Sequence record: PZ386960.1
Strand: one strand, 5' to 3'
Length of the DNA stretch: 39,643 nt
DNA from: a phage
Part shown: in pieces, positions 1,896 to 36,238 of the stretch
How the letters are laid out: each line of letters opens with the position of its first letter
Position numbering within the stretch: the first letter of the stretch is position 1
The notes under the pieces: model-generated
Told to the model about the DNA's origin: nothing
The model's input: only the letters and a program-made list of their open reading frames with translations
Databases searched by the model: none
Position numbers and translations under genes: made by a program

Positions 1896-1918
1896 TAATA
1901 CGACTCACTATTGGGAAG
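1896..1918 (+). promoter_or_regulatory. Phage RNAP promoter (phiOR-like, downstream of gene 19)
   Basis: TAATACGACTCACTATT-GGGAAG; matches the T7 promoter at -17 to -2 with T at -1. Confidence 0.85.
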
Positions 1919-2073
1919 GGCCCCTAAGACAACTTAAAGACACTTAAAGATTGCATATGCAAAGTGCATACTTAGTGACTACTCTTAGAGACCCTTACAG
2001 TGTGGGATGATAGTAATTGTAATTACATCCCTACTAACAGTGTAACCATCAAGTATAACAAGGAGGACGCTCT

Positions 2074-2229
2074 ATGCGCTTACTATCCGTGCTCAAGACA
2101 CTGGCAACGCATCGAGCGACTTACAAATTTCTCGCTGTACTTGCTGCTTCCATTGGTCTCGCATCTAGTGCTGAACACATCGGTGAACTGGAGACTCTGC
2201 TTTGTTCTCTACTCACTTGTGTTTCTTAG
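2074..2229 (+). CDS. gp19.5: Gene 19.5-like small protein (51 aa)
   Basis: AGGAGG 8 nt upstream of ATG; translation MRLLSVLKTLATHRATYKFLAVLAASIGLASSAEHIGELETLLCSLLTCVS resembles T7 gp19.5 as recalled. Different frame from the listed 2000..2248 ORF. Confidence 0.7.
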   Translation: MRLLSVLKTLATHRATYKFLAVLAASIGLASSAEHIGELETLLCSLLTCVS

Positions 2230-2319
2230 ACTGCTCATTGGCGCTTAGTGCGCTCTTAGTGATTATGGTCGATATTCATCTTCCCTATAATCACTGTAAG
2301 AAGTCAACTCTAAGAGTAA

Positions 2320-2740
2320 CCCTTATGTAACCTCTATGGTCTACAGGGTCTCTTAGGGTCTCTCACGCAGTCTCACCTTATGATAGAGCCTGTATGGTTA
2401 ACCTTATGAGTCCTTGATGTACCCTTTAAGAATCCTACAGAAAAATCTGAGTGAGTATCTCATAGTTCATAAACACCGAGTTCCCCCCCTATGGCCTCCT
2501 TCAGTTCCACCCAAAGAGTGCCACCCCTAGGGTAACTTTATGTTTACTTAATGTCAATCCTTATGTGTGACATTGGGATGACTTAGGGTTAACCACTAGA
2601 TATGGTGCTTAGTGTGACCTTATGACCACTATATGTGGTCCTCTCTGTGTCCCTATCTGTAAGTGACCTTATGACCTCTTAGAGTCATCACCTTATGTCA
2701 TCACCTTATGTCAGACCAGCGACCACTATCCTTATGTTAA
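2320..2740. repeat. Array of at least 9 dispersed CCTTATG heptamers flanking and inside the terminal-repeat region
   Basis: CCTTATG seen near 2322, 2375, 2402, 2549, 2628, 2666, 2691, 2704, 2730; analogous to the CCTAAAG repeats around the T7 terminal repeat. Confidence 0.6.
2457..2670. repeat. Direct terminal repeat (single collapsed copy) with genome left end near 2457
   Basis: TCTCATAGTTCATAAACACCGAGTTCCCCCCCTATGGCC at 2457 resembles the T3/T7 left terminus; CTCTCTGTGTCCCTATCTGT at about 2641-2660 resembles the end of the T7 terminal repeat. Boundaries approximate. Confidence 0.5.
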
Positions 2741-2903
2741 CCTTCAGTCGGTGCCTTCAGTTTATCAGTGACCAGTAGGCTTAGTCACAAAGGAGATTCA
2801 CTATCTTACTCTGTTTAGCAGTCTCTGAGTAATGAGAGAGAGACAAGTAGAATTGACTGAGTGCTTATAGTGCCTTAAAGGCGACTAAGAGTCAATCCCT
2901 GAT

Positions 2904-2926
2904 TAATGCGACTCACTAATGGGAAG
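2904..2926 (+). promoter_or_regulatory. Phage RNAP promoter (phiOL-like)
   Basis: TAATGCGACTCACTAAT-GGGAAG. Confidence 0.75.
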
Positions 2927-2999
2927 TGTCTAATTATAATCCCTTCCTTATAGGCTAACTTAAAGACTACTTAAAGATAACTTAAAGTCTAACTAAGGG

Positions 3000-3028
3000 T
3001 TGACTCTAAGAAACAGCTATGTTCTAAT
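3000..3028 (+). promoter_or_regulatory. Host sigma70 early promoter (A1-like)
   Basis: TTGACT, 17-nt spacer, TCTAAT; preceded by ACTTAAAG repeats as upstream of T7 A1. Confidence 0.55.
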
Positions 3029-3135
3029 GGCTACCAGTTGAGAGACACAACGCTAACAACTACCAGACAAGACCTAGAGTTATCTGGTAAGGCTGAAGGG
3101 TCTCAAGTAGTCATCAACCAGACATACGAAAGTGG

Positions 3136-3164
3136 TTGACTCAACGAAAGCAATAACGTAGTAT
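3136..3164 (+). promoter_or_regulatory. Host sigma70 early promoter (A2-like)
   Basis: TTGACT, 17-nt spacer, TAGTAT. Confidence 0.5.
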
Positions 3165-3231
3165 AGCAGTCGTCAACAACTGGTCGCCCTCTGAAACAAC
3201 ATGAGGTGTCACGGTGAGAAACAAAAAGTAG

Positions 3232-3261
3232 TTGACAAGTAGTAGCGATAAGATGTAAGAT
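3232..3261 (+). promoter_or_regulatory. Host sigma70 early promoter (A3-like)
   Basis: TTGACA, 18-nt spacer, TAAGAT. Confidence 0.55.
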
Positions 3262-3446
3262 GTACGACATAACGTTCTCGTGAAGTCCCACACTGAAAGG
3301 GACTCGGTGCTAACAAACCTGCACTTAAAGCTCTTTAACAATTTGGATAATAAGCACTCTTGAGATGACGACAACAGCGATTAACTCAAGGTGACTCGAA
3401 AGAGAAGCCTTTATGATAATCACTGCAACCACATAAGGTAATCATC

Positions 3447-3902
3447 ATGATTCACACTAAAGAGCAAGCTAACGTTTTCTATGTACTGGTAAGCGCATTC
3501 CGTTCTAACCTGCACCACTTGGATAACCTTAGTCGTCATCGTCGCTTAGTTAACAGCTTACGCAATGCACCTCTGGAATACGGTAGCGTTGAGTCTACAG
3601 ACTTAACTGGCTGTTATCATGAGGCTGGCATGGAGTCACCCTCTGAAGAGCAAACCATTCGAGTACGCTGCACGACTAAAGCTCAAGCTATAAGTGTCGC
3701 ACGGTTGGCTTGTAACGACTATGAGCAAGACTGTGTACTGGTCTATAAGTCACAGACTCACAACGCTGCACTAATCTTTGCTGGTGGCTTGGACGGTTGG
3801 AAGACTGAGCGTATCGGGTCGTTCCAGATGGTCGCACCTGAAGTTGAACTGACAGGCAACTACACGGTCGATGAGTTCGGACGTGGCTGGAAGGTAATCT
3901 AA
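3447..3902 (+). CDS. gp0.3: S-adenosylmethionine-cleaving anti-restriction protein (T3-type SAMase / SAM lyase)
   Basis: 151 aa; MIHTKEQANVFYVLVSAFRSNL...GSVESTDLTGCY...CVLVYKSQTH...IDEFGRGW matches T3 0.3 as recalled; not Ocr-like. Confidence 0.9.
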   Translation: MIHTKEQANVFYVLVSAFRSNLHHLDNLSRHRRLVNSLRNAPLEYGSVESTDLTGCYHEAGMESPSEEQTIRVRCTTKAQAISVARLACNDYEQDCVLVYKSQTHNAALIFAGGLDGWKTERIGSFQMVAPEVELTGNYTVDEFGRGWKVI

Positions 3903-4102
3903 TGGTCATGGCACTCTTTGTAATCACTGTGTACGCTCTGATTGGGGCGTACTTCCTAAGAGACTTCCGCAAGGGTCTCAAGGTACACAAGGCTAACTTC
4001 TCGCACTTGAAGTATGGCTTTCTACCACGATTCACAGTCCGTGAACGTAACGGGCGCTTTAAGGCTAACAAGGTTGGTATCTTCTATGTTGCAACACACT
4101 GA
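3902..4102 (+). CDS. Hypothetical small membrane protein (gene 0.4-0.6 region)
   Basis: 66 aa; ATG overlaps the 0.3 stop (TAATG); N-terminal hydrophobic helix LFVITVYALIGAYFL; early-region position. Confidence 0.45.
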   Translation: MVMALFVITVYALIGAYFLRDFRKGLKVHKANFSHLKYGFLPRFTVRERNGRFKANKVGIFYVATH

Positions 4103-4250
4103 TAGTTTAACTAAGAAAGTTCTGTACACACTGGCATATGGTGCTACCAACAAGACTCTAATGCGGGCATTGCACCTGAAGCGGATACCCGCCAGAAAGG
4201 TAGCAAAGGCATGTAAAGAAGCGCGTTTAATCCTCAATTCTCTCTCTTAA
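4086..4250 (+). CDS. Hypothetical small basic protein
   Basis: First ATG (MLQHTDSL...) of the 4014..4250 frame that lies beyond most of the preceding ORF; no clear SD. Confidence 0.3.
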   Translation: MLQHTDSLTKKVLYTLAYGATNKTLMRALHLKRIPARKVAKACKEARLILNSLS

Positions 4251-4263
4251 AGGACACAATCTA

Positions 4264-5367
4264 ATGAACTACACCGACATTCAGGCACGTCTGGCAATCA
4301 TCGAGTCACTCCCGATTAGCGAACTGGACAAGCGCCAGCCTCTTCTGGTTGCACTGGCTGCTGACATCGTGAACGGTGAGACAAGCGATGGCAACGACAC
4401 AGACGGGTCGCAGGGTCTTGAGTATCAGGACTGGTGGCACACTTTGGGTGCACTGATGCGTGATGCAGGTTTCCGCATGCTGGGTAATGGTCACTTCAGT
4501 GCAGCCTACTCGCACGAAATGTTACCGGGTCGAGTCATCAAGGTTGGCTTTAAGAAAGAGGATTCAGGCGCTGCATACACTGCATTCTGTAGGATGCACC
4601 AAGGCCGAGCGGGTATCCCTAACGTCTATCACGTAGCACGTCATGCAGGTTGCTACACAGTGGTGCTCGATAGGCTTCATAGCTGTGACCGCTACGCTAA
4701 CGATGTTCACGCAAAGTATGCAAGTGCTGCGCAGGAGTTCATTGAGTGCACTGGAGGTGATGCCGATTGGTACGCACAGTATGTTAGCAAGGAGTTCATT
4801 GAGACATGCAAGATGATTCGTGAGTTCTTCCACGGTATTGCATCTTTCGACATGCACAGCGGGAACATTATGTTCGATGACAACGATGTCCCGTACATCA
4901 CTGACCCGGTTAGTTTCTCACATGACCGTGAACGTGAGGACGGTTTCCCTCTGGACCCTGATGCACTGATTGCCGAGGTCGAGGCGATAGCTAACGAGCG
5001 CATCATTGAACGTTGCCGCATCCGCAAGGCAAAGTGTGACCCTAACGGAACCTTTCAGGTTAACCGCAAGGCCGCAATGAAACGCCGCAAGCGCAACCGT
5101 AAGTTACGTGCTAAACATGCAGCGGAAGGAATGCAACAGTTTGTCAAAGAGCGTCTTGAGCGTAGAGCTATTGGCCGAAATGAACGCCGTGCTGAGATGT
5201 TCATGGGGTCTGGCTGGCACGACTTCTGGTTACGCAATGGTAACACACTGGTACGCAAGGTTGAACAAGTGAACGGCCTCAAGTGGCAACTAGGGGACCG
5301 CCTCGCAATACAGGCTGGTCGCCCTTTGAACATCGACAAGGTACTTGACGCTCAACTGATGGGCTGA
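4264..5367 (+). CDS. gp0.7: Ser/Thr protein kinase and host transcription shutoff protein
   Basis: 367 aa; ELDKRQ, GNGHFSAAYSH, VIKVGFKKEDSGAAYTAFCRM, GIASFDMHSGNIMF, YITDPVSFS match T7/T3 0.7. Confidence 0.93.
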   Translation: MNYTDIQARLAIIESLPISELDKRQPLLVALAADIVNGETSDGNDTDGSQGLEYQDWWHTLGALMRDAGFRMLGNGHFSAAYSHEMLPGRVIKVGFKKEDSGAAYTAFCRMHQGRAGIPNVYHVARHAGCYTVVLDRLHSCDRYANDVHAKYASAAQEFIECTGGDADWYAQYVSKEFIETCKMIREFFHGIASFDMHSGNIMFDDNDVPYITDPVSFSHDREREDGFPLDPDALIAEVEAIANERIIERCRIRKAKCDPNGTFQVNRKAAMKRRKRNRKLRAKHAAEGMQQFVKERLERRAIGRNERRAEMFMGSGWHDFWLRNGNTLVRKVEQVNGLKWQLGDRLAIQAGRPLNIDKVLDAQLMG

Positions 5368-5371
5368 TAAG

Positions 5372-5412
5372 GTGTATCTTCAAGGTCGGCACTAACTGCT
5401 GGCCTTCATAGA
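5372..5412 (+). promoter_or_regulatory. RNase III-type processing hairpin (R1-like) upstream of gene 1
   Basis: CAAGGTCGGCACTAACTGCTGGCCTTCAT forms an imperfect stem with G-U pairs; related to the conserved element at 8751, 9270 and 16319. Confidence 0.45.
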
Positions 5413-5439
5413 TAAACTTTCTTAACAACGAGGCACACA

Positions 5440-8088
5440 ATGAACGTAATCAACGCACCAAAGAATGACTTCTCTGACATCGCTAACGCAATCCAGCCGT
5501 ACAACATTCTGGCTGACCATTACGGTGCACATCTGGCGGCTACGCAGTTACAGTTAGAACACGAAGCGCACACTGAGGGCGAGAAGCGTTTCCTTAAGGC
5601 AATGGAGCGTCAAATCAAAGCTGGTGAGTTCGGTGATAACGCAGTGGCTAAACCGCTCCTGTCATCCCTCGCACCGAAGTTCATCGAAGCGTGGAACACT
5701 TGGTTCACTGAAGTGGAAGCGAAGCGTGGCAAGCGTCCAGTGGCCTACAATCTGGTACAGAAGGTTGCACCTGAAGCTGCTGCATTCATCACACTGAAGG
5801 TCACACTGGCTTGCTTGACCAAAGAGGAATACACGAACCTTCAATCGGTCGCCACTAAGATTGGTCGCAGTATTGAGGATGAACTGCGTTTTGGTCGCAT
5901 CCGTGACGAAGAAGCGAAGCACTTTAAGAACCATGTACAGGAGGCACTGAACAAGCGCGTTGGTATCGTCTACAAGAAAGCATTCATGCAAGCCGTAGAG
6001 GGCAAGATGCTTGATGCTGGTCAACTGCAAACCAAGTGGACCACATGGACACCTGAAGAATCAATTCACGTTGGTGTGCGCATGTTGGAACTGCTCATTG
6101 GTTCTACTGGTCTCGTTGAGTTACACCGCCCGTTCGCTGGTAACGTTGAGAAGGATGGCGAGTACATCCAGTTAACCGAGCAATATGTTGACCTGCTGTC
6201 TAAACGTGCTGGTGCACTGGCTGCAATCGCTCCGATGTATCAACCTTGCGTGGTCCCTCCGAAGCCGTGGACTTCTCCGGTTGGTGGTGGCTATTGGGCT
6301 GCTGGTCGCAAGCCTCTCTCTCTGGTTCGCACTGGTAGCAAGAAGGGACTGGAACGTTACAACGATGTGTACATGCCTGAAGTTTACAAGGCGGTGAACA
6401 TCGCACAGAATACTCCTTGGAAGATTAACAAGAAGGTTCTGGCAGTGGTCAACGAGATTGTGAACTGGAAGCATTGCCCGGTTGAAGATATACCCGCTCT
6501 GGAACGTGGGGAACTCCCGGTCAAACCTGATGACATCGACACCAACGAGGCATCGCTCAAAGCGTGGAAGAAAGCGGCCTCCGCAATCTACCGCAAAGAG
6601 AAGGCACGAGTGTCACGCCGCATGAGCATGGAGTTCATGTTAGGACAAGCCAACAAGTTCGCGCAGTTCAAGGCTATCTGGTTCCCGATGAACATGGACT
6701 GGCGCGGTCGTGTGTACGCTGTGCCGATGTTTAACCCGCAAGGCAACGACATGACCAAAGGCTTGCTGACGCTCGCTAAAGGTAAACCAATCGGTGTCGA
6801 TGGGTACTACTGGCTGAAGATTCACGGTGCTAACACTGCTGGTGTGGACAAGGTGGACTTTGCAGAACGCATCAAGTTCATTGATGACAACCACGAGAAC
6901 ATCATGAGCGTTGCGGCTGACCCGATTGCTAACACTTGGTGGGCTGAACAAGACTCTCCGTTCTGCTTCCTCGCGTTCTGCTTTGAGTATGCGGGAGTCC
7001 AGCACCACGGGATGAACTACAACTGCTCTCTACCTCTGGCGTTCGATGGCTCTTGCTCCGGTATTCAGCACTTCTCCGCGATGCTCCGCGATGAGGTCGG
7101 TGGTCGTGCTGTTAACCTGCTACCAAGTAAGGAAGTACAGGACATCTACCGCATTGTTGCCGAACGTGTGAACGAGATGCTCCGCGAAGCGGTAATCAAC
7201 GGCACTGATAACGAAGTGGAAACCGTGACCAATAAAGACACCGGAGAAATCACTGAGAAGCTCAAGCTGGGAACGAAAGAGTTAGCTGGTCAGTGGCTGG
7301 CCTACGGTGTGACTCGCAAGGTCACTAAGCGTTCGGTCATGACGTTGGCTTACGGTTCCAAAGAGTACGGCTTCCGTGACCAAGTTCTTGAGGACACCAT
7401 TCAGCCAGCTATCGACGATGGCAAGGGCTTGATGTTCACTCAACCGAACCAAGCGGCTGGCTACATGGCTAAACTGATTTGGGAATCGGTAACGGTCACA
7501 GTTGTCGCAGCGGTTGAAGCGATGAACTGGTTGAAGTCTGCTGCTAAACTTCTGGCTGCTGAAGTCAAGGACAAGAAGACTAAAGAAGTCCTCCGCAAGC
7601 GTTGCGCAGTACATTGGGTTACTCCTGATGGCTTCCCGGTCTGGCAGGAATACAAGAAGCCAGTACAGACCCGCTTGAACCTGATGTTCTTAGGCCAGAT
7701 TCGTCTACAGCCTACCGTGAACACCAACAAGGATAGCGGTATTGATGCTCGTAAACAGGAGTCAGGCATCGCACCTAACTTTGTCCACTCAATGGATGGA
7801 AGCCACCTGAGAATGACTGTAGTGCGCTCCAATGAGGTCTACGGTGTGGAATCCTTCGCACTGATTCACGACTCCTTTGGCACTATCCCGGCTGATGCTG
7901 GCAACCTGTTTAAAGCAGTGCGTGAAACGATGGTCAACACTTACGAAGAGAACGATGTACTTGCAGACTTCTATGAGCAATTTGCTGACCAGTTGCACGA
8001 ATCACAGCTTGACAAGATGCCTGAGATGCCAGCTAAAGGTTCTCTGGACCTGCAAGAAATCCTTAAGTCAGACTTTGCGTTTGCCTAA
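5440..8088 (+). CDS. gp1: Single-subunit DNA-dependent RNA polymerase
   Basis: 882 aa (T7 RNAP 883); near-colinear with T7 RNAP, including the specificity loop QPTVNTNKDSGIDARKQ and the C-terminal FAFA. Confidence 0.98.
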   Translation: MNVINAPKNDFSDIANAIQPYNILADHYGAHLAATQLQLEHEAHTEGEKRFLKAMERQIKAGEFGDNAVAKPLLSSLAPKFIEAWNTWFTEVEAKRGKRPVAYNLVQKVAPEAAAFITLKVTLACLTKEEYTNLQSVATKIGRSIEDELRFGRIRDEEAKHFKNHVQEALNKRVGIVYKKAFMQAVEGKMLDAGQLQTKWTTWTPEESIHVGVRMLELLIGSTGLVELHRPFAGNVEKDGEYIQLTEQYVDLLSKRAGALAAIAPMYQPCVVPPKPWTSPVGGGYWAAGRKPLSLVRTGSKKGLERYNDVYMPEVYKAVNIAQNTPWKINKKVLAVVNEIVNWKHCPVEDIPALERGELPVKPDDIDTNEASLKAWKKAASAIYRKEKARVSRRMSMEFMLGQANKFAQFKAIWFPMNMDWRGRVYAVPMFNPQGNDMTKGLLTLAKGKPIGVDGYYWLKIHGANTAGVDKVDFAERIKFIDDNHENIMSVAADPIANTWWAEQDSPFCFLAFCFEYAGVQHHGMNYNCSLPLAFDGSCSGIQHFSAMLRDEVGGRAVNLLPSKEVQDIYRIVAERVNEMLREAVINGTDNEVETVTNKDTGEITEKLKLGTKELAGQWLAYGVTRKVTKRSVMTLAYGSKEYGFRDQVLEDTIQPAIDDGKGLMFTQPNQAAGYMAKLIWESVTVTVVAAVEAMNWLKSAAKLLAAEVKDKKTKEVLRKRCAVHWVTPDGFPVWQEYKKPVQTRLNLMFLGQIRLQPTVNTNKDSGIDARKQESGIAPNFVHSMDGSHLRMTVVRSNEVYGVESFALIHDSFGTIPADAGNLFKAVRETMVNTYEENDVLADFYEQFADQLHESQLDKMPEMPAKGSLDLQEILKSDFAFA

Positions 8089-8095
8089 CGGAATC

Positions 8096-8118
8096 TAATA
8101 CGACTCACTATTGGGAGC
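8096..8118 (+). promoter_or_regulatory. Phage RNAP promoter (phi1.1A-like)
   Basis: TAATACGACTCACTATT-GGGAGC. Confidence 0.85.
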
Positions 8119-8177
8119 CTTCGGGCTTCCTAAACTTTAAGATACTTTAAGTTCTAACTTTAAGAGGAAACACAATC

Positions 8178-8735
8178 ATGTTTACTTTAATAACTTCAGT
8201 AGGCGCTCTCGTATCAACCATTCTTGCAGCAACATACTATAATCGTTCAAAGGTATTTCTCACTAAGCTAATAAAAGAAGAGAAGAACTCTCATGCACTC
8301 AAAGAGAGACTTGAAGATGGATGGCGAGAGAAGCAGGAACTAGCTGGTCGAATCCGTACCTTAGAGTTCGAACAACAATATGACATGTCGAACCAACGAG
8401 AACTCATTGAGCGTCTACGCACTGAGGCAGTGGAGTACCGCAAGGAACTTAAAGAGGCAAAGAGTATCATCCGTGAGTACACTCACAGTGACATCACGTC
8501 TATCAAGTTTACCGCTCACATACCGGATGCTGGATGGAAGCGCACTGAGTTCAAGCTGGGTATAGGGTCTTGCGGCAAAGAGGTTATATGTTTGCACTGG
8601 AAAGAACAAACCGACCGCTATCTGCTGACACAGACGTGCACTGACGGTGAGCGCAAAGAGTTCACCTATTATAAGAAAGATGTAGCTGGTCGCATTGAGA
8701 TTGCACGTAAGGTTGCAGACAATACGACTCACTAA
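8178..8735 (+). CDS. Hypothetical membrane-anchored coiled-coil protein (inserted between gene 1 and 1.1)
   Basis: 185 aa; GAGGAAAC SD; N-terminal TM segment (LITSVGALVSTILAATYY), charged heptad-rich region (residues about 30-100), Cys-containing C-terminal domain. No T7 counterpart recognised. Confidence 0.6.
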   Translation: MFTLITSVGALVSTILAATYYNRSKVFLTKLIKEEKNSHALKERLEDGWREKQELAGRIRTLEFEQQYDMSNQRELIERLRTEAVEYRKELKEAKSIIREYTHSDITSIKFTAHIPDAGWKRTEFKLGIGSCGKEVICLHWKEQTDRYLLTQTCTDGERKEFTYYKKDVAGRIEIARKVADNTTH

Positions 8736-8742
8736 TGGGAAA
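8720..8742 (+). promoter_or_regulatory. Phage RNAP promoter (phi1.1B-like), overlapping the 3' end of the 185-aa ORF
   Basis: CAATACGACTCACTAAT-GGGAAA. Confidence 0.8.
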
Positions 8743-8750
8743 CACTGAAA

Positions 8751-8793
8751 GTTAAACTCAAGGTCATCACTTCTGGTGGCCTTCATGATTAAC
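8751..8793 (+). promoter_or_regulatory. RNase III processing site (R1.1-like)
   Basis: GTTAAACTCAAGGTCATC...GGTGGCCTTCATGATTAAC; one of three near-identical 43-bp irregular hairpins. Confidence 0.6.
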
Positions 8794-8825
8794 TGTCAAC
8801 GATACTACCAAGAGGAAACAACACT

Positions 8826-8975
8826 ATGCGTACCAACTTCGAACCAACTACCAAGCGCAACAACGTAATCAACGAACACGGCGCTGAATGGCAGGAACGT
8901 AAAGACCGCATGAAGAAACGCCACAAGACACAACGTGGCAACGCTGAGAAACGCAACTGGAAGGAGGCACTCTAA
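8826..8975 (+). CDS. gp1.1: Gene 1.1 small basic protein
   Basis: 49 aa, highly basic (MRTNFEPTTKRNN...KKRHKTQRGNAEKRNWKEAL), position and composition like T7 gp1.1. Confidence 0.7.
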   Translation: MRTNFEPTTKRNNVINEHGAEWQERKDRMKKRHKTQRGNAEKRNWKEAL

Positions 8976-9247
8976 TGGGTCGCTTATATAGTGGTAACTT
9001 AATAGCATACAAAGACGCTATCGAACGCCTCAAAGAAGACCATGATGTAAGCGTGGTCGAAGAGACATTCCGTTATGAGAACTATGCACAACGCCGATGG
9101 GTATCCGGTGAGACTCTCCGCATTGTTCTACGCAATGGCCTCGTACTGACATCCAAGTGTTTCGAACAGTCAGACGAAGATGTCCGGTGCAACGCACAGA
9201 CTGAGTGGCTCCGCAAGGTACACGCAGACCTGAAGCACTGGAAGTAA
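8975..9247 (+). CDS. gp1.2: Inhibitor of host dGTP triphosphohydrolase
   Basis: 90 aa; MGRLYSGNL start and C-terminal DLKHWK like T7 gp1.2 (MGRLYSGNL...QLKDWK); start overlaps the 1.1 stop. Confidence 0.85.
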   Translation: MGRLYSGNLIAYKDAIERLKEDHDVSVVEETFRYENYAQRRWVSGETLRIVLRNGLVLTSKCFEQSDEDVRCNAQTEWLRKVHADLKHWK

Positions 9248-9267
9248 TACGACTCACTATTGCGAAA
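9245..9267 (+). promoter_or_regulatory. Phage RNAP promoter (phi1.3-like, variant +2 C)
   Basis: TAATACGACTCACTATT-GCGAAA. Confidence 0.65.
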
Positions 9268-9269
9268 GA

Positions 9270-9312
9270 GTTAAACTAAAGGTCATCTTCACGGGTGGCC
9301 TTTGTGATTAAC
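9270..9312 (+). promoter_or_regulatory. RNase III processing site (R1.3-like)
   Basis: GTTAAACTAAAGGTCATCTTCACGGGTGGCCTTTGTGATTAAC. Confidence 0.6.
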
Positions 9313-10394: not shown

Positions 10395-10426
10395 CAGTCC
10401 TTAGCGGGGCTGGCCTTTTCGCGTTT
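10395..10426 (+). terminator. Early (host RNAP) intrinsic terminator, TE-like
   Basis: CAGTCC-TTAGCG-GGGCTG stem-loop followed by GCCTTTTCGCGTTT; tail resembles the T7 TE tail (GGCCTTTCTGCGTTT) and lies just after ligase. Confidence 0.6.
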
Positions 10427-10448
10427 CTATTAGACTCACTATGGAGGA
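10426..10448 (+). promoter_or_regulatory. Degenerate phage promoter-like element whose +1 region is GGAGG
   Basis: TTAGACTCACTAT-GGAGGAAC; core GACTCACTAT conserved, upstream part diverged. Confidence 0.4.
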
Positions 10449-10456
10449 ACAACCTC

Positions 10457-10537
10457 ATGCTATTTCTAATTGCTGCTGCTATCTTTGCCACGTTTGCCTT
10501 CGTTATCATTGACGACAACTGCTGGCCTGATTGCTAA
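10457..10537 (+). CDS. Hypothetical 26-aa hydrophobic peptide
   Basis: GGAGG 9 nt upstream; MLFLIAAAIFATFAFVIIDDNCWPDC; sits where T7 has small 1.4/1.5 genes. Confidence 0.35.
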   Translation: MLFLIAAAIFATFAFVIIDDNCWPDC

Positions 10538-10557
10538 TACGACTCACCTATGGAGGA
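10535..10557 (+). promoter_or_regulatory. Phage RNAP promoter variant (phi1.5/1.6-like)
   Basis: TAATACGACTCACCTAT-GGAGGAA. Confidence 0.55.
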
Positions 10558-11318: not shown

Positions 11319-11506
11319 GCACTCTGAATAAAGGGTCACTGGTAAACGGTGACAAGAAGTTCTTCGCAACGGTCGAAGGCCAAGGCCAATCGTTCGAAGT
11401 CCCTGTGTTCGCTGCGTCTCTTGAAGAGGCCAATGAGTTAGCTGAGTGGCAATACGTCCCTGCTGGCTTCGCTGTAACACGCATCCGTCCAGACCGTAAG
11501 GTTTAA
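11315..11506 (+). CDS. gp2: Inhibitor of host RNA polymerase
   Basis: 63 aa; [53 protein letters not shown] closely matches T7 Gp2. Confidence 0.92.
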
Positions 11507-11526
11507 TAGGACTCACTAATGGGAGA
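11504..11526 (+). promoter_or_regulatory. Phage RNAP promoter (phi2.5-like)
   Basis: TAATAGGACTCACTAAT-GGGAGAC followed by a 5' stem-loop. Confidence 0.8.
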
Positions 11527-13156: not shown

Positions 13157-13611
13157 TGCCAAAGGTACAATTCAAACCAAGAACTTCTACAGAAGCAATC
13201 TTTGTACACTGTAGTGCTACCAAAGCAACAATGAACATTGGTGTTCGTGAGATTAGTCAGTGGCACAAGGAACAGGGGTGGTTAGCAATTGGCTATCATT
13301 TTGTTATTCGCCGTGATGGTACAATCGAAGAAGGCCGTCCGGTCGATGTCGTTGGGTCTCACGTTAAGGACTGGAACAGTAAGTCAGTCGGTGTGTGCCT
13401 CGTTGGTGGTATCGACGATAAGGGCAGACACGAAGCTAACTTTACGCCAGCACAGATGCACTCTCTTAAAGAGAAACTGGCAGACCTGAAAGACCTGTAC
13501 CCGGATGCAGAAATCAAAGCACACCACGATGTGGCCCCTAAAGCGTGTCCAAGTTTTAACTTGAGTCGCTGGCTGAAGACTGGTGAATTAGTAACAAGCG
13601 ATTGGGGTTAA
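13156..13611 (+). CDS. gp3.5: Lysozyme / N-acetylmuramoyl-L-alanine amidase (RNAP inhibitor)
   Basis: 151 aa, same length as T7 lysozyme; FVHCSATK, GYHFVIRRDG, AHHDVAPKACPSF. Confidence 0.95.
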   Translation: MPKVQFKPRTSTEAIFVHCSATKATMNIGVREISQWHKEQGWLAIGYHFVIRRDGTIEEGRPVDVVGSHVKDWNSKSVGVCLVGGIDDKGRHEANFTPAQMHSLKEKLADLKDLYPDAEIKAHHDVAPKACPSFNLSRWLKTGELVTSDWG

Positions 13612-13631
13612 TAGAACTCACTATGGGAGGA
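13609..13631 (+). promoter_or_regulatory. Phage RNAP promoter (phi3.8-like)
   Basis: TAATAGAACTCACTAT-GGGAGG followed by the hairpin GGGAGGACCGAAAGGTTTCTCCC. Confidence 0.7.
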
Positions 13632-15541: not shown

Positions 15542-15564
15542 AAATACAACTCACTAATGGGACA
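15542..15564 (+). promoter_or_regulatory. Phage RNAP promoter (phi4.3-like)
   Basis: AAATACAACTCACTAAT-GGGACAG followed by the hairpin GGGACAGACACTCTGTTCCC. Confidence 0.7.
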
Positions 15565-16374: not shown

Positions 16375-16397
16375 CTATTCAACTCACTAATGGGAGA
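16375..16397 (+). promoter_or_regulatory. Phage RNAP promoter (phi4.7-like; diverged upstream half)
   Basis: CTATTCAACTCACTAAT-GGGAGAA. Confidence 0.55.
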
Positions 16398-20875: not shown

Positions 20876-20898
20876 CAATACGACTCACTATGGGAGAG
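20876..20898 (+). promoter_or_regulatory. Phage RNAP promoter (phi6.5-like)
   Basis: CAATACGACTCACTAT-GGGAGAGGG. Confidence 0.75.
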
Positions 20899-21882: not shown

Positions 21883-23490
21883 ATGGCAAGCTCACAGAAA
21901 CGTGAAGGCTTCGCTGAGAATGGTGCTAAGGCGGTGTATGACGCATTGAAGAACGACCGGAACTCATACGAAACCCGTGCGGAAAACTGTGCGAAGTACA
22001 CCATCCCTTCGTTGTTCCCTAAAGACTCTGACAACGCCTCTACTGACTATACCACTCCGTGGCAAGCAGTTGGTGCTCGTGGTCTGAACAACTTGGCCTC
22101 TAAGCTCATGCTCGCTCTGTTCCCTATGCAGACGTGGATGAAGCTGACCATCTCTGAGTTCGAAGCAAAACAACTCGTAGCGCAACCTGCGGAATTGGCT
22201 AAAGTCGAAGAAGGCTTGTCAATGGTAGAGCGCATCCTAATGAACTACATTGAGTCTAACTCCTACCGAGTGACTCTGTTTGAGACCCTTAAGCAACTGG
22301 TCGTAGCTGGCAATGCCCTGCTGTACATCCCTGAGCCTGAAGGTACTTACAATCCCATGAAGTTATACCGCCTGTCTTCTTATGTTGTCCAACGAGACGC
22401 ATTCGGCACGGTACTACAGATTGTGACCTTGGATAAGACTGCTTATGCAGCGCTGCCAGAAGACGTAAGGAACTCTATGGACTCCGGTACGGAGCACAAA
22501 GGCGATGAAATGATTGACGTGTATACTCACATTTATCTCGATGAGGAATCAGGTGAATACCTGAAGTACGAAGAGATTGATGGGGTCGAAGTTGATGGTA
22601 CAGATGCTTCTTATCCGGTGGACGCTTGTCCTTATATCCCGGTTCGCATGGTACGCATTGATGGGGAATCATATGGTCGTTCATACTGTGAGGAATACTT
22701 GGGTGACTTACGTTCACTTGAGAACCTTCAGGAAGCTATCGTTAAGATGTCAATGATTAGTGCCAAAGTTATCGGCTTGGTTAACCCTGCTGGTATCACA
22801 CAGGTTCGTCGCTTAACGAAAGCCCAAACGGGTGACTTCGTGTCTGGTCGTCCAGAAGACATCTCGTTCCTTCAGCTTGAAAAGGCTGCTGACTTCTCTG
22901 TAGCGAAAGCTGTGAGTGAACAGATTGAAGGCCGTCTGTCCTATGCCTTTATGCTTAACTCCGCTGTGCAACGTACTGGTGAGCGTGTGACTGCCGAAGA
23001 GATTCGTTATGTCGCTAGTGAACTGGAAGATACCCTTGGTGGTGTCTATTCGATTCTCTCACAGGAACTTCAGTTGCCAATGGTTCGTGTTCTGCTGAAG
23101 CAACTTCAAGCGACCAATCAGATTCCTGAGTTACCGAAAGAGGCCGTTGAGCCTACTATCAGTACCGGGATGGAAGCATTGGGTCGTGGTCAAGACCTCG
23201 ATAAGCTGGAACGCTGTATTGCTGCGTGGTCTGCGCTGGCTCCTATGCAGGGAGACCCGGACATCAACATTGCGACCATTAAGTTGCGCATTGCGAACGC
23301 TATCGGTATCGACACTTCTGGTATCCTCAAGACACCTGAAGAGAAACAACAGGAGATGGCTGAGGCTGCTCAAGGTACTGCACTGGAGAACGCTGCTGCA
23401 TCTGCTGGTGCTGGTGCTGGTGCACTTGCTACTGCAAGCCCTGATAACATGCAAGCTGCTGCTGAACAGGCTGGAATGGTTCCAAATTAA
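21883..23490 (+). CDS. gp8: Portal (head-tail connector) protein
   Basis: 535 aa (T7 is 536); colinear similarity. Confidence 0.96.
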   Translation: MASSQKREGFAENGAKAVYDALKNDRNSYETRAENCAKYTIPSLFPKDSDNASTDYTTPWQAVGARGLNNLASKLMLALFPMQTWMKLTISEFEAKQLVAQPAELAKVEEGLSMVERILMNYIESNSYRVTLFETLKQLVVAGNALLYIPEPEGTYNPMKLYRLSSYVVQRDAFGTVLQIVTLDKTAYAALPEDVRNSMDSGTEHKGDEMIDVYTHIYLDEESGEYLKYEEIDGVEVDGTDASYPVDACPYIPVRMVRIDGESYGRSYCEEYLGDLRSLENLQEAIVKMSMISAKVIGLVNPAGITQVRRLTKAQTGDFVSGRPEDISFLQLEKAADFSVAKAVSEQIEGRLSYAFMLNSAVQRTGERVTAEEIRYVASELEDTLGGVYSILSQELQLPMVRVLLKQLQATNQIPELPKEAVEPTISTGMEALGRGQDLDKLERCIAAWSALAPMQGDPDINIATIKLRIANAIGIDTSGILKTPEEKQQEMAEAAQGTALENAAASAGAGAGALATASPDNMQAAAEQAGMVPN

Positions 23491-23510
23491 TACGACTCAC
23501 TAATGGGAGA
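23488..23510 (+). promoter_or_regulatory. Phage RNAP promoter (phi9-like)
   Basis: TAATACGACTCACTAAT-GGGAGAG followed by the hairpin GGGAGAGACAATACGTCCTCCC. Confidence 0.9.
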
Positions 23511-24472: not shown

Positions 24473-24495
24473 TAATACGACTCACTATTGGGAGA
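24473..24495 (+). promoter_or_regulatory. Phage RNAP promoter (phi10-like)
   Basis: TAATACGACTCACTATT-GGGAGAG followed by the hairpin GGGAGAGACTACACGTTCTCCC. Confidence 0.9.
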
Positions 24496-25779: not shown

Positions 25780-25823
25780 AAACCCCCTTGGGTGCCTTCG
25801 CGGGTGCTTGAGGGGTTTTTTTC
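25780..25823 (+). terminator. Tphi-like terminator
   Basis: AAACCCCCTTGGGTGCCTTCGCGGGTGCTTGAGGGG followed by T7; same architecture and position as T7 Tphi. Confidence 0.85.
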
Positions 25824-25845
25824 TTAATGACTCACTAATGGGAGG
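25823..25845 (+). promoter_or_regulatory. Phage promoter-like element upstream of gene 11 (one base short in the upstream half)
   Basis: CTTAATGACTCACTAAT-GGGAGGA. Confidence 0.55.
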
Positions 25846-28873: not shown

Positions 28874-28896
28874 CAATACGACTCACTATTGGGAAG
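28874..28896 (+). promoter_or_regulatory. Phage RNAP promoter (phi13-like)
   Basis: CAATACGACTCACTATT-GGGAAGG. Confidence 0.85.
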
Positions 28897-28924: not shown

Positions 28925-29338
28925 ATGTTAATAATCAGACCTACCAAAGAATCAGACTTCGAGAGATTCACACCATCACCTGAAGACATCGCTGAGGCAA
29001 AAGCCTATGGTATTGAACCTTCATTTCCACCAGCCTCTGAGTGTGTCACCATGTCTCTTCATGGGATGCCTGTGGCAATTGGAGGGAACCGTGGAGACCA
29101 AGTGTGGTTCGTGACGTCTGCCCGTGTGTGGAAACTAAGCATGAAGACACGAAGAGAGTTCCGAAAGCTCATTCTGGAGTATCGTGATACCATGCTCAAA
29201 CAGTATCCGATTATCTGGAACTACGTTTGGGTCGGCAACAAGTCCCACATTAGGTTCTTGAAGTCTATTGGTGCGGTGTTCCATAATGAGTTTACTGGTG
29301 ACAGTAATCAATTCCAACTATTCACTATAGGAGGTTAA
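28925..29338 (+). CDS. gp13: Internal virion protein A
   Basis: 137 aa (T7 is 138); positional match. Confidence 0.85.
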   Translation: MLIIRPTKESDFERFTPSPEDIAEAKAYGIEPSFPPASECVTMSLHGMPVAIGGNRGDQVWFVTSARVWKLSMKTRREFRKLILEYRDTMLKQYPIIWNYVWVGNKSHIRFLKSIGAVFHNEFTGDSNQFQLFTIGG

Positions 29339-29340
29339 CT

Positions 29341-29946
29341 ATGTGCTGGATGGCTGCAATCCCAATCGCCATGCAAGGTGCGTCTATGGTAATGGGCGGT
29401 ATGCAGGGTGAACAGGCAAAGGCCGCACAGATTGACCAAGGTCGTCGTCAAAGCTGGCAGATGATTAAGGAGATGAACTACAATGATGCTAACCTTAAGT
29501 TAGAATCTCGTGACCTCATCGACTCGACTGTCCAAGAGATGACCCAAGCGAATATGAACCGTGTGCGAAACATGGGGACTATCCGTGCGGCAATCGGTGA
29601 AGGGATGCTTGAAGGTAACTCAATGGAACGTGTAGCCCGCGTTACTGAGGGTGACTTCCTTCGAGAGTCTCAAGGTCTCACCGAGAACTACCAACGTGAC
29701 TACAGTGTCATCTTAGGTAAGCGTTTAGCTAACCGTGAGAATACAGTAAGTCAAATCAATGAAATCAACAAGTCTGAACCTCGTCTGAAAGGCAAGCTGG
29801 AACAAATCATTGACCCATTAGGCTTAGGCTTAACGAAGCTGGTCGATGTGGCAACTGCTGGTAGCCCTCTGACTAACAAGCTGGGTAAGAAGGCAGCTTC
29901 CAAGGTTAAGGCTTCGGATGCTAAGTCTACCGGACAAGGCAAGTAA
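29341..29946 (+). CDS. gp14: Internal virion protein B
   Basis: 201 aa; position and size match T7 gp14. Confidence 0.88.
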   Translation: MCWMAAIPIAMQGASMVMGGMQGEQAKAAQIDQGRRQSWQMIKEMNYNDANLKLESRDLIDSTVQEMTQANMNRVRNMGTIRAAIGEGMLEGNSMERVARVTEGDFLRESQGLTENYQRDYSVILGKRLANRENTVSQINEINKSEPRLKGKLEQIIDPLGLGLTKLVDVATAGSPLTNKLGKKAASKVKASDAKSTGQGK

Positions 29947-29963
29947 ACACAGGAGGTAACTGT

Positions 29964-32243: not shown

Positions 32244-32266
32244 CAGACCACGATAGGAGGTTCCAA

Positions 32267-35200
32267 GTGGATAAGTATAACCCGAACGAACCGCATGAAT
32301 ATGATGCGTTATTTCAACAAGCTGCTGACACACATGGAGTCTCCTATGGCCTTCTTCGGAAGGTCGGTTGGGTAGAGTCCCGATTCAAACCCACGGCCCA
32401 ATCTCCAACAGGGCCACGAGGTGTCATGCAGTTCACTAAGGCAACCGGTCAGGCTTATGGCCTACAGTCTGATGAGGACTTCAACGACCCGGCTAAGTCT
32501 ATTGATGCTGGTGCTCGTTACCTTGCAGACCTCGTTAAGAAATACAATGGGGATGAACTCAAAGCTGCCCTAGCGTACAACCAAGGTGAGGGACGTAATG
32601 GTAAACCTCAATTGGAAGCATACGACTCCGGTAACTTTGCTGGCATCGGTGATGAGGGGCGCAACTATCTCCGCTCACTTCTGGATGTCGCTAAGTCTCC
32701 TAAGAGTGGTGACATTGAGGCATTCGGTGGTATCACCCCAAAGGGTAAAGGGATTCCGTTCGATACTGCTATGAGTGGCATCGGGAAGAAAGGAAAGGTA
32801 ACTACAGAACTCCCTGAGTCTCACTCAATGTCCTTTCAAGGTAAAGAACAGGCCGCTCCCAATCAGCCGTTCGGAAAAGACTATTGGGAAGCAAAAGGAA
32901 CTACACTTGACGAAGCCAATGAGCGTTCAACCTTCTTCGGATTCGGTAACGCTGCTGAAGCAGAACTCTCCAACTCAACCTTGGGTGTGGCCTTCCGTGC
33001 TGGTAAGCGTGATAATGGTTTCGATGTTGTTACTGATGTACTTCAACCGACACGGTTTAACAGCCACATTTGGTCGCCTGAAGAACTCGAAAGGATTCGC
33101 AACGAAGTGAAGAACCCTGCGTACATGAACGTAGTGCTTGGGGGTTCCTCTGAGAATCTGGATGAACTCATCAAGTTAGCCAATGAGAACTATGAGTTGG
33201 ACGCTAAGGCCGCTGATGCTGGACTTGGTGCGAAACTGTCTGCTGGGATTATTGGTGCTGGTGTTGACCCTCTGACCTACGTTCCAATCGCTGGGACTGC
33301 GGCTAAGGGATTCAAACTGGTGAACAAGGCGCTGATTGTGGGTGCACAGGCAGGTGCTCTTAACGTTGCCTCTGAAGGTCTGCGTACATCGGTGGCTGGT
33401 GGTGATGCCCACTATGCAGAAGCTGCCCTTGCTGGTATGCTGTTCGCTGGTGGACTGACCGCTATCGCTGACGGTGTTGCCGCAGGACTCCGTAAGTCTG
33501 GCGCTGAACAGATTGAGAACCCGTTTGCTGCTGCACAGATGCGCTTTGAGGCCCGTGAGACTGCCCGTAACACTGGTGGACATGACGCAAGTCGTATGCC
33601 TCCTAGTGAAGACCGAGTGTTCTCACAGCACAACGGCGTTGAGTATTCACCTCTTGAGACCGAACCGGGTGCCGTAGTGTTGCGTGATGGTTCCATTATC
33701 AGTGACACCAACTTAGCTAACCCTATGACAGCCAAAGAGTTCGCCGAGGTGGACCCTGAACGTGCTGCTTGGGGATTGCCTATGCGTGGACTGAGTGAAA
33801 TCGGCTTGAGGACTTTACGTTCTGAACATGCTGAAATCCGTGGTCTAGCTAAGGACTTGGTGCGTTCGCCTACAGGGATGGAGTCTGGCTCACATGGTAA
33901 GTTCGGTGCTACCGCATCTGACATCAAAGAGCGACTGCACAGTACCAACCAGCGAACCTACAATGACCTCTATGATGCAATGAAGGAAGCAATGGCTGAC
34001 CCTGAGTGGTCCGTGGGTATGTTCAAGCGTGGTGCTCAAGGTGCCCGTCAGGAAATCTATCGTCGTGCTGCTATCGCTATTGAGCGTCCAGAACTTCAAG
34101 CAAACTTAACGAAGGCTGAACGTAAGGTTATGGACATCATGAAGGAACACTTCGACCTCAAGCGTGAGATGATGGAGAACCCGGCTATGTTCGGTAACAA
34201 GGCAACTTCCATCTTCCCTAACAGTCGTCACAAAGGGACTTACGTTCCTCATGTGTACTCACGGGAAGCCAAGCAGTTGTACTCACAGGCTCTTGGTGGC
34301 TCTGATGGTTTACAGGAAGCTATCGCCGCAAGCTGGATGACATCTTACCGTTCACGTCCTGAAGTTAAGGCTCGTGTGGATGAGCATCTAGCGGAGACAC
34401 TAGGTATCGACCCGAAGGCTGTAACCGAAGAGATGGTGATGAAACATGCCAGCGACAAGGCTTATGGTATTGCGAAGACAGATGAGTTCAACTCTTCAAG
34501 TGTCATCGACGATAACATTGAGGGTCTCGTAGGGATTGAGAACAACTCGTTCCTTGAAGCCCGTAACCTGTTCGATTCTGACATGCCAGTCACTTTACCG
34601 AATGGACAACAGTTCTCCGTGAATGACCTCCGTGACTTCGATATGAAGCATGTAATGCCAGCCTACGACCGCCGTGTTGATGGTGACATTGCTATCATGG
34701 GTGGTACAGGAAAGACTACTGCTGAACTCAAGGATTCCATTCTGGCTCTCGATAAGAAGTCTGAAGGTAAAGGCACAATGAAAGGTGAAGTTGAAGCACT
34801 CAAGGATACCGTTAAGATTCTCACAGGTCGTGCTCGACGCAATCAGGATACTATGGGTGACACTATGGTTCGCGCTTTGTCCGATATGTCCTTCTTTACG
34901 AAGAACGCATACATGGGCTTGCAGAACCTAACTGAAATCTCTGGTCTCTTGGCGAAGGGTAACACTCGTGCGATGCTGCATGGTATCCCCGCTCTGCGTG
35001 ACTTAGCATTCCGTAACAAGCCAGTCTCCGGTAAGGAACTCAAGGAACTACACTCTATGGTGTTCGGTAAAGAGTTCGATGACTTAATCAGACCGACACG
35101 TCAGGACATCATTCAGCGACTCCGTGAATCTACGGACACACCTGATGTTGCCGCTAAGGTTGTTGGCACGGTTAAGCACACCACTCAAGAGTTGGCTGCT

Positions 35201-36214
35201 CGCTCTCCGTTCACTAAGTTCCTCAATGGTACTTCCAACTACATTCTGGACATGGCCCGTCAAGGTGTCATGGGAGATGTGGTAACTCATGCCATTACTG
35301 GTAAGGGTGCCAACAAGTGGATTAAAGGCGACATGCTGAAATCTGCGAGTATCTCTAAGGAACAGTGGGAAGGCATTCAGAACCTAATCCGTGAGAACGT
35401 CACTCAAGGTGCTGATGGCAAGTACACCTTCAAGGACAAGCGTAAGCTGGCTAATGACCAGCGAGCTATGGACCTGTGGCGACTGGCTGATAAGGTAGCT
35501 GATGAAACCATGCTGAGACCACACAAGGTGTCCTTACAGGATTCCCATGCGTTTGGTGCTGCTGCTAAGTTGGTCCTTCAGTTCAAGTCTTTCGTAATCA
35601 AGTCGATGAACTCTAAGTTTATCCGCTCCGGTAACGAAGCCTTTAAGAACCATAGGGCTATGGACATGGCGCTGACCTACGCAATCTCTGGAGGCATCGC
35701 TGGTTCCTACTACGTGGCACAGGCCCACTTGAAGGCCGCTGGTCTACCTAAAGAGCAACAGAAGGACTACTTGAAGAAAGCCCTTGACCCTAAGATGATT
35801 GCCTATGCTGCTGCGTCCCGAAGTTCACACATTGGGTCGCCTCTGAGTATCGCAAACTTCGCTATGGGTGCTGCTGGTTACGACCAAGGTCTCATGGTCC
35901 GCTCTACGATTCTCCCGAAGGGTGAGGACAAGCGGGAACGGAACAAGTCGGTAACTTCTCGTGACATGAGTGACTCCATTATGGGTGCATTAGGTGAGCA
36001 GATTCCTGCTCTTGGATTCGCCGGGGCAACCTTTGCCGCTGGTCGAAATGCTTATGGTGTCCTTACGGCTCCCAATAAAGTTACCGAGCGTGAGATGATG
36101 ACTGGCCTAATGAATGCTCATCGTGAGATGGTTCCGAATGACCCTATCACTCAACAGATGCTCATTAAATTCTATGAGGCTAATGGTGTTCACCTTAAGT
36201 CTGACAAGAAGTAA
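32267..36214 (+). CDS. gp16: Internal virion protein D with N-terminal lytic transglycosylase domain
   Basis: 1315 aa; GTG start after TAGGAGG; (M)DKYNP...GVSYGLLRKVGWVESRF...GVMQFTKATGQAYGL matches T7 gp16 (MDKYDKN...). Confidence 0.95.
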   Translation: MDKYNPNEPHEYDALFQQAADTHGVSYGLLRKVGWVESRFKPTAQSPTGPRGVMQFTKATGQAYGLQSDEDFNDPAKSIDAGARYLADLVKKYNGDELKAALAYNQGEGRNGKPQLEAYDSGNFAGIGDEGRNYLRSLLDVAKSPKSGDIEAFGGITPKGKGIPFDTAMSGIGKKGKVTTELPESHSMSFQGKEQAAPNQPFGKDYWEAKGTTLDEANERSTFFGFGNAAEAELSNSTLGVAFRAGKRDNGFDVVTDVLQPTRFNSHIWSPEELERIRNEVKNPAYMNVVLGGSSENLDELIKLANENYELDAKAADAGLGAKLSAGIIGAGVDPLTYVPIAGTAAKGFKLVNKALIVGAQAGALNVASEGLRTSVAGGDAHYAEAALAGMLFAGGLTAIADGVAAGLRKSGAEQIENPFAAAQMRFEARETARNTGGHDASRMPPSEDRVFSQHNGVEYSPLETEPGAVVLRDGSIISDTNLANPMTAKEFAEVDPERAAWGLPMRGLSEIGLRTLRSEHAEIRGLAKDLVRSPTGMESGSHGKFGATASDIKERLHSTNQRTYNDLYDAMKEAMADPEWSVGMFKRGAQGARQEIYRRAAIAIERPELQANLTKAERKVMDIMKEHFDLKREMMENPAMFGNKATSIFPNSRHKGTYVPHVYSREAKQLYSQALGGSDGLQEAIAASWMTSYRSRPEVKARVDEHLAETLGIDPKAVTEEMVMKHASDKAYGIAKTDEFNSSSVIDDNIEGLVGIENNSFLEARNLFDSDMPVTLPNGQQFSVNDLRDFDMKHVMPAYDRRVDGDIAIMGGTGKTTAELKDSILALDKKSEGKGTMKGEVEALKDTVKILTGRARRNQDTMGDTMVRALSDMSFFTKNAYMGLQNLTEISGLLAKGNTRAMLHGIPALRDLAFRNKPVSGKELKELHSMVFGKEFDDLIRPTRQDIIQRLRESTDTPDVAAKVVGTVKHTTQELAARSPFTKFLNGTSNYILDMARQGVMGDVVTHAITGKGANKWIKGDMLKSASISKEQWEGIQNLIRENVTQGADGKYTFKDKRKLANDQRAMDLWRLADKVADETMLRPHKVSLQDSHAFGAAAKLVLQFKSFVIKSMNSKFIRSGNEAFKNHRAMDMALTYAISGGIAGSYYVAQAHLKAAGLPKEQQKDYLKKALDPKMIAYAAASRSSHIGSPLSIANFAMGAAGYDQGLMVRSTILPKGEDKRERNKSVTSRDMSDSIMGALGEQIPALGFAGATFAAGRNAYGVLTAPNKVTEREMMTGLMNAHREMVPNDPITQQMLIKFYEANGVHLKSDKK

Positions 36215-36215
36215 T

Positions 36216-36238
36216 CAATACGACTCACTATTGGGAAG
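36216..36238 (+). promoter_or_regulatory. Phage RNAP promoter (phi17-like)
   Basis: CAATACGACTCACTATT-GGGAAGG followed by the hairpin GGGAAGGCTCACACAGCTTCCC. Confidence 0.85.

Follow-up and report, generated by a model that had tools for sequence, protein, structure and literature searches.

The 39,643-nucleotide (nt) phage sequence PZ386960.1, called here over its whole length the window, carries 17 short sites resembling the promoters of bacteriophage T7, and these raise two questions: whether they serve an RNA polymerase (RNAP) encoded by the phage itself, and whether their departure from T7 just before the start of transcription separates this polymerase-promoter pair from that of T7. The 17 sites are almost certainly promoters for the T7-type single-subunit RNAP encoded by gene 1 of what proves to be a Berlinvirus of the BA14, Berlin and Kvp1 kind. 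As a set they are the ordinary promoters of that genus (BA14, Berlin, Kvp1, PP74), already known from GenBank annotation and with one member tested in vitro.

The promoter set and its polymerase

Megablast of both halves of the window against a phage collection identifies it as a circularly permuted T7-group genome of the genus Berlinvirus, a placement borne out by both nucleotide identity and gene order. Identity is 91-96% over 80-100% of the window to ErnstBeyeler, CarlSpitteler, PhiV-1, BA14, 285P and Kvp1. The promoters, the two terminators and the polymerase gene are as follows, with a slash before position +1.

1896..1918, + strand: phiOR, TAATACGACTCACTATT/GGGAAG; after gene 19, upstream of gene 19.5 and the terminal repeat; the 23-mer is the annotated BA14 phiOR
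2904..2926, + strand: phiOL, TAATGCGACTCACTAAT/GGGAAG; some 450 bp in from the left end of the genome; ortholog of the annotated phiOL of BA14 and Yepe2
5440..8088, + strand: gene 1, T7-type single-subunit RNA polymerase, 882 amino acids (aa); aligns end to end with T7 RNAP (1cez; E=0) with a single one-residue gap
8096..8118, + strand: phi1.05, directly after gene 1; leader hairpin from +1, -13.3 kcal/mol, z -2.33
8720..8742, + strand: phi1.1, CAATACGACTCACTAAT/GGGAAA; in the 3' end of gene 1.05; same 23-mer in BA14, Kvp1 and CarlSpitteler
9245..9267, + strand: phi1.3, ending TATT/GCGAAA; upstream of the ligase gene; C at +2 kept in 7/7 Berlinviruses
10404..10426, + strand: TE-like terminator hairpin, after gene 1.3 and adjoining phi1.5; TE is annotated there in BA14 and Yepe2
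10427..10449, + strand: phi1.5, CTATTAGACTCACTATG/GAGGAA; G at -1, short-junction class; TATG/GA in 7/7 Berlinviruses
10535..10557, + strand: phi1.6, TAATACGACTCACCTAT/GGAGGA; C at -4, with CTAT or ATAT in all relatives; the transcribed start is also a Shine-Dalgarno sequence
11504..11526, + strand: phi2.5; leader hairpin from +1, -10.9 kcal/mol, z -3.0
13609..13631, + strand: phi3.8, TAATAGAACTCACTATG/GGAGGA; upstream of gene 4; G at -1, short-junction class; TATG/GG in 7/7 genomes
15542..15564, + strand: phi4.3; leader hairpin from +1, -10.4 kcal/mol, z -2.6
16375..16397, + strand: phi4.7, CTATTCAACTCACTAAT/GGGAGA; ATG 14 nt past +1; the 23-mer is the annotated BA14 phi4.7
20876..20898, + strand: phi6.5, CAATACGACTCACTATG/GGAGAG; G at -1 through a T-to-G point substitution
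23488..23510, + strand: phi9, consensus class III type; leader hairpin from +1, -12.2 kcal/mol, z -2.6
24473..24495, + strand: phi10, a full match to the consensus; precedes the major capsid gene; hairpin in leader GGGAGAGACUACACGUUCUCCC, -11.0 kcal/mol, z -2.2
25784..25822, + strand: Tphi terminator, after gene 10; 14-bp stem (25784-25815) and a run of seven T; annotated in BA14 and Yepe2
25823..25845, + strand: phi11, CTTAATGACTCACTAAT/GGGAGG; the weakest site, 17 bits with the BA14-only matrix described below; ATG 14 nt past +1; annotated in Kvp1
28874..28896, + strand: phi13, CAATACGACTCACTATT/GGGAAG; same 23-mer in BA14, Kvp1, PP74 and CarlSpitteler
36216..36238, + strand: phi17, CAATACGACTCACTATT/GGGAAG; leader hairpin from +1, -9.3 kcal/mol, z -2.1

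All 17 promoters had been listed in an earlier note, made from the letters of the window, and every one of them was recovered. Allowing up to three mismatches, TAATACGACTCACTA matches 14 times, always on the + strand, where 0.85 matches would be expected, and none of 100 shuffled sequences reached 14; the sites at 10426, 16375 and 25823, which fall outside these 14, also have the ACTCAC core. The earlier note had proposed a weight-matrix scan of the genome as a check. A 23-column matrix trained on the sites themselves gives exactly 17 sites (22-39 bits), all on the + strand, and no further site above 5 bits on either strand of the window. Because this matrix was trained on its own sites, a second was built from the 16 GenBank-annotated promoters of BA14 only; it returns the same 17 sites in the window (17-39 bits), retrieves the 17 mapped promoters of T7 in the T7 genome, and finds no other site above 8 bits in 79 kb (both strands). 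One position needed correction, 10426 being one base out of register; that promoter, phi1.5, starts at 10427, with GACTCAC at -11 to -5.

In fixed register, ACTCAC at -10 to -5 and G at +1 are invariant in all 17 sites, and the window consensus from -17 to -5 is identical to that of T7. The earlier interpretation as promoters for the phage RNAP is right, as is the T7-like organization into classes II and III with leaders of the phi10 type. Each promoter has the orientation of the genes (17/17 on the + strand) and lies between genes or at the 3' end of one, with 13-161 nt from +1 to the next start codon, phiOL (526 nt) being the exception. Sixteen of them match the annotated BA14 set by both position and sequence, and the seventeenth, phi11, is the annotated phi11 of Kvp1. 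Initiation at these sites, like the exact +1 of each, is predicted from their sequence.

Several points weigh against the assignment of all 17 as promoters with the starts given here: +1 in this phage is set by register, the three sites that carry G at -1 have an ambiguous start nucleotide, a function is ascribed to the leader hairpins by analogy with T7, and phi11, phi1.5 and phi1.6 score far lower than the rest (17-27 bits as compared with 30-39) and may be weak. A rival reading takes these three for inactive remnants or random matches; in its favor are the low scores and, for phi11, the lack of a TAATAC upstream half and the absence of the site in BA14, Berlin and Yepe2. However, all three retain ACTCAC and the G at +1, 13-14 nt before a start codon, and T7 has the same weak class II promoters in the same places. 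Their orthologous positions are conserved (phi1.5 and phi1.6 in 7/7 genomes, phi11 in four), and no other position of the window exceeds 8 bits; on these grounds the relic or chance interpretation, which we consider very improbable, was rejected.

The gene 1 polymerase is 76.6% identical to that of T7, 97.8% to that of BA14, 96.6% to that of Berlin and 94% to that of PP74; relative to T7, the N-terminal domain is at 64% and the palm and fingers are at 86%. Conserved residues include, in T7 numbering, R746, N748, R756, Q758, V237, W422, D537, Y639, H784 and D812. The first four of these are the base-reading residues of the T7 specificity loop (PMC11880802), and their equivalents in the window are R745, N747, R755 and Q757, within YKKPVQTRLNLMFLGQIRLQ. 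The earlier note had placed the equivalent of N748 in QPTVNTNKDSGIDARKQ. The alignment rejects this, that motif corresponding to T7 Q758-Q774 with its asparagines at N762 and N764, while the true equivalent is N747, in TRLNLMF. The note's conclusion that GACT at -11 to -8 is read as in T7 is nonetheless right, for the different reason that all four base-reading residues are identical to those of T7. There is hardly any change in the AT-rich loop (EAKRGKRPV in the window, KAKRGKRPT in T7), whereas the intercalating hairpin (RNAP residues 229-244) has strongly diverged, HRPFAGNVEKDGEYIQ as against T7 HRQNAGVVGQDSETIE, with V237 retained; this hairpin and the N-terminal domain are the parts most diverged from T7 RNAP.

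By homology with T7, the AT-rich recognition loop would bind TAATA at -17 to -13, the specificity loop, through R745, N747, R755 and Q757, would read GACTC at -11 to -7, and the intercalating hairpin would open the TAWT segment at -4 to -1, with synthesis starting with GTP at the G that lies 18 nt from the start of the element. Transcription would run rightward, from the class II promoters phi1.05 to phi6.5 and the class III promoters phi9 to phi17, with phiOL and phiOR near the genome ends, and would be punctuated by TE (~10404) and Tphi (25784-25822).

The base at -1 and the short junction

The proposal that -1 is T (or the -2/-1 pair AT) where T7 has A stands for 14 of the 17 sites; the other three have G, none has A, and -2 is T in nine and A in eight. 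Across seven Berlinvirus genomes, the 112 promoters have T (95) or G (17) at -1, never A or C, while among the same genomes seven orthologous positions have T in some and A in others at -2. (The four comparison genomes that were fetched were scanned with a degenerate 23-mer at up to two mismatches, and a few obvious false positives were dropped by hand.) In T7, A occupies -1 in 16/17 promoters, the exception being the A-initiating phi2.5 (CACTATT/AGGGAA). The window sites thus follow the Berlinvirus consensus TAATACGACTCACTAWT/GGGAGA, with T, rarely G and never A at -1, and none of the 17 fits the strict T7 (Teseptimavirus) consensus TAATACGACTCACTATA/GGGAGA, with A there. Since all 112 Berlinvirus promoters have a non-A base at -1 and 16/17 T7 promoters have A, a non-A base (T, occasionally G) at this position is a conserved trait of the genus, not one special to this phage.

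The subclass described earlier as having a junction one base shorter is made up of phi1.5 (10427), phi3.8 (13609) and phi6.5 (20876), which can equally be described as G at -1 in a fixed register. Three such sites do exist, although at phi6.5 the change is a T-to-G point substitution and not a deletion. A 1-nt deletion was rejected there, the orthologous site in Berlin, Yepe2, PP74 and CarlSpitteler reading TATT/GGAGAG, with identical downstream sequence (checked in Berlin); the form with G at -1 is common to the window and Kvp1.

Another description of these three sites is that they are true spacing variants, starting at the first G, 17 rather than 18 nt from the start of the element, and giving GGAGG or GGGAG transcripts as in T7. 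Set beside their T7 orthologs (CACTAAA/GGGAGA at phi3.8 and CACTAAA/GGAGGT at phi1.5), phi3.8 and phi1.5 are indeed one base shorter between CAC and the shared GGGAG or GGAGG, and phi1.5 would start with GA in the fixed register but with GG in the shifted one. The phi3.8 leader hairpin, in 7/7 Berlinviruses, has a 3' arm (CUCCC) whose partners are all three G, the G at register -1 among them, which favors a start one base upstream. On the other hand, the substitution at phi6.5 implies that the ancestral start there was the second G, GA starts occur in T7 too (phi1.1A and phi4c), and T7 RNAP sets its start by distance from the binding element upstream, which counts against a shift. A real change of spacing is quite conceivable on this evidence, if not what we would favor; the fixed register, with G at -1, has been kept in the list above.

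Leaders, terminators and the ends of the genome

Stem-loops at the 5' end of several late and class II transcripts, as in the T7 phi10 leader, had been proposed, and folding of +1 to +40 of each transcript confirms them: hairpins anchored at +1 are found in seven of the 17 leaders (phi1.05, 2.5, 3.8, 4.3, 9, 10 and 17), with energies of -9.3 to -13.3 kcal/mol and, for six of the seven, z between -2.1 and -3.0, phi3.8 being at -1.04. At phi17, compared over eight genomes, three pairs are kept through two-sided changes, such as A4:U19 to G:C in Berlin and Yepe2. These hairpins presumably stabilize the mRNA, by analogy with T7 phi10.

Leader hairpins are lacking at phi1.5, phi1.6, phi4.7 and phi11, where the first nucleotides transcribed, GGAGG or GGGAG, are followed by an ATG at a distance of 13-14 nt. 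This segment acts as the ribosome-binding site, as at T7 phi1.5, 1.6, 4.3 and 4.7; at phi1.5 the Shine-Dalgarno sequence coincides with +1 to +6, and the ATG comes 13 nt further on. The mechanical list of open reading frames (ORFs) starts gene 1.6 at an ATG at 10550, inside phi1.6; its true start is likely 10565, 13 nt past +1, as BA14 annotates.

Phi11 begins immediately after the seven-T run of Tphi, making terminator and promoter contiguous. This arrangement is found in this phage, Kvp1, CarlSpitteler and PP74, and is absent in BA14, Berlin and Yepe2.

Three further stretches of leader sequence are similar to sequences of T7. Past phi1.1 (8755-8790) lies aaactcaaggtcatc...ggtgg, and past phi1.3 (9275-9301) lies aaactaaaggtcatcttcacgggtggcc, with a fold of -10.8 kcal/mol; they are similar to the T7 leaders that follow phi1.1A and phi1.3, the location in T7 of the RNase III sites R1.1 and R1.3. 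After phiOR (1919-1955), gacaacttaaagacacttaaagatt is a near-match to the repeated ACTTAAAGA motif that follows T7 phiOL (gacaacttaaagagacttaaaagatt), and the similarity suggests that repeats of the ACTTAAAGA type may be a conserved end-proximal element.

Position 1 of the window is the ATG of gene 19 (large terminase; 1-1761), and the homolog of the 194-bp direct terminal repeat of BA14 is present in a single copy, at 2458-2654. The repeat was therefore collapsed in assembly, and this is where the two physical ends of the genome lie. Upstream of gene 0.3 there are three sigma-70-like sites on the + strand (3136-3164, 3232-3261 and 3391-3420), in the place where BA14 annotates four early promoters for the host RNAP; over the whole region scanned, the count of sigma-70-like matches is not above chance. 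The RNA polymerase gene has a 96% nucleotide match to CarlSpitteler, while the late region is nearest to Kvp1 (93% identity). After the tail-fiber gene is a 174-aa ORF (38075-38599), in the same place as Kvp1 gene 17.2, which is annotated as a putative tail-fiber assembly protein.

Relation to known promoters and insulation from T7

BA14 (EU734171) and Yepe2 (EU734170) share with the window the genus, the consensus TAATACGACTCACTAWT/GGGAGA, the gene junctions, G at -1 in phi1.5 and phi3.8, and both TE and Tphi, and ten of the window 23-mers are identical to those of BA14. The BA14 record annotates phiOL, 1.05, 1.1, 1.3, 1.5, 1.6, 2.5, 4.3, 4.7, 6.5, 9, 10, 13, 17 and phiOR along with TE and Tphi, and its unnamed "phi" is phi3.8; the Yepe2 and Kvp1 records have orthologous promoters annotated at the same gene junctions. 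BA14 and Yepe2 differ from the window in having no phi11, in single-base changes within the 23-mers (for example at phiOL and phi1.3) and, for BA14, in the T at -1 of phi6.5. Kvp1 (FJ194439; Lingohr et al. 2008, PMC2579914) shares the consensus, has phi11 annotated right after Tphi and has the phi6.5 with G at -1, but it has no phi4.3 and its phi4.7 has G at -1; published sequence logos of 2008 present the Kvp1 and Berlin promoters as one type (PMC2579914). T7 itself (NC_001604) has the same -17 to -5 consensus, 17 promoters at largely the same gene junctions, and leader hairpins at phi10, phi3.8 and phi17; unlike the window, it has phi1.1A/B and phi4c and is without phi1.05 and phi11.

The link to transcription in vitro comes through the Pectobacterium phage PP74. 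Its RNAP has the same specificity loop as that of the window apart from a nearby K-to-R change, and differs in the AT-rich recognition loop (AAKSGPRPV, as against EAKRGKRPV here, though both read TAATA); its host also differs. The PP74 promoter that was tested, TAATACGACTCACTATTGGGAA, is exactly phiOR of the window (1896) over -17 to +5, and in the window phi13 and phi17 the sole difference from it is a C at -17. According to the results given in PMC11475235, the PP74 enzyme, assayed in vitro on TAATACGACTCACTATTGGGAA, was the most active of 26 polymerases tested, ahead of T7 RNAP.

That the polymerase and promoters of this phage may show partial orthogonality to T7 had been suggested in the earlier note. 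The idea is not new and has support only in part. In the counts tabulated in file S2 of Komura 2018, T7 RNAP gave 73.3 RNA/DNA reads on the -1T variant TAATACGACTCACTATTGG, about 43% of the wild-type mean of 169, and 138-161 with A at -2 (TAAAGG), while T7 phi2.5, with T at -1, has reported yields like those of class III promoters. From the ~43% on the -1T variant and the good yields at phi2.5, T7 RNAP should transcribe the window promoters with a moderate loss of rate. For the reverse case, PP74 RNAP is reported in PMC11475235 to have yielded no expression that could be quantified on promoters belonging to the other active enzymes, with mention of "even a single nucleotide change". A 2026 paper cites 1982 cross-transcription work on BA14 as evidence that BA14 is functionally distinct from both T7 and T3. 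A 2025 covariation study of T7-like RNAPs in Nucleic Acids Research (NAR) finds couplings in the specificity loop and leaves Berlin, BA14 and Kvp1 unmentioned, and PRSeq randomized only -12 to -7.

At its strongest, orthogonality would mean that the pair is insulated from T7 on both sides, the Berlinvirus enzyme needing a non-A base at -1 and ignoring T7 promoters while T7 RNAP uses the Berlinvirus promoters poorly. This would fit the complete absence of A at -1 in the 112 promoters, all the more as the neighboring -2 is free to flip, and the nearly uniform A of T7; the reported failure of PP74 RNAP on non-cognate promoters, the cited BA14 results, and the concentration of divergence in the N-terminal domain and intercalating hairpin point the same way. 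The BA14 cross-transcription study is reportedly that of Mertens and Hausmann in 1982 (J Gen Virol 62:331). But T7 RNAP retains a substantial part of its activity on TAATACGACTCACTATTGG and T7 has a productive promoter with T at -1 of its own; the residues that read -11 to -7 and the consensus from -17 to -5 are all identical to those of T7; and the PP74 observations come from a coupled reticulocyte assay, in an account that does not name the promoter with the single change. Full insulation is rather doubtful. With the four residues that read -11 to -7 the same as in T7, with T7 RNAP tolerating T at -1 and with PP74 RNAP reportedly rejecting non-cognate promoters, any insulation there may be is probably one-way and based on the initiation region, not on the specificity loop.

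One possibility, speculative and on present evidence unlikely, is that the -1 base is a true specificity determinant of the Berlinvirus RNAPs, T or G being required and A rejected, and that it would be read by the diverged N-terminal domain or intercalating-hairpin region during melting rather than by the specificity loop. The value of the window lies mainly in annotation, in the transcription map of one more Berlinvirus and a corrected residue assignment, and the strictly conserved non-A base at -1 is the sole point of wider use. The PP74 pair is already under study as an enzyme for mRNA manufacturing. If the -1 base does act in this way, insulation from T7 promoters would run in one direction and hang on one base of the melted region, and the Berlinviruses would offer synthetic biology a near-T7 polymerase-promoter pair, set apart from that of T7 by one base outside the classical footprint of the specificity loop.

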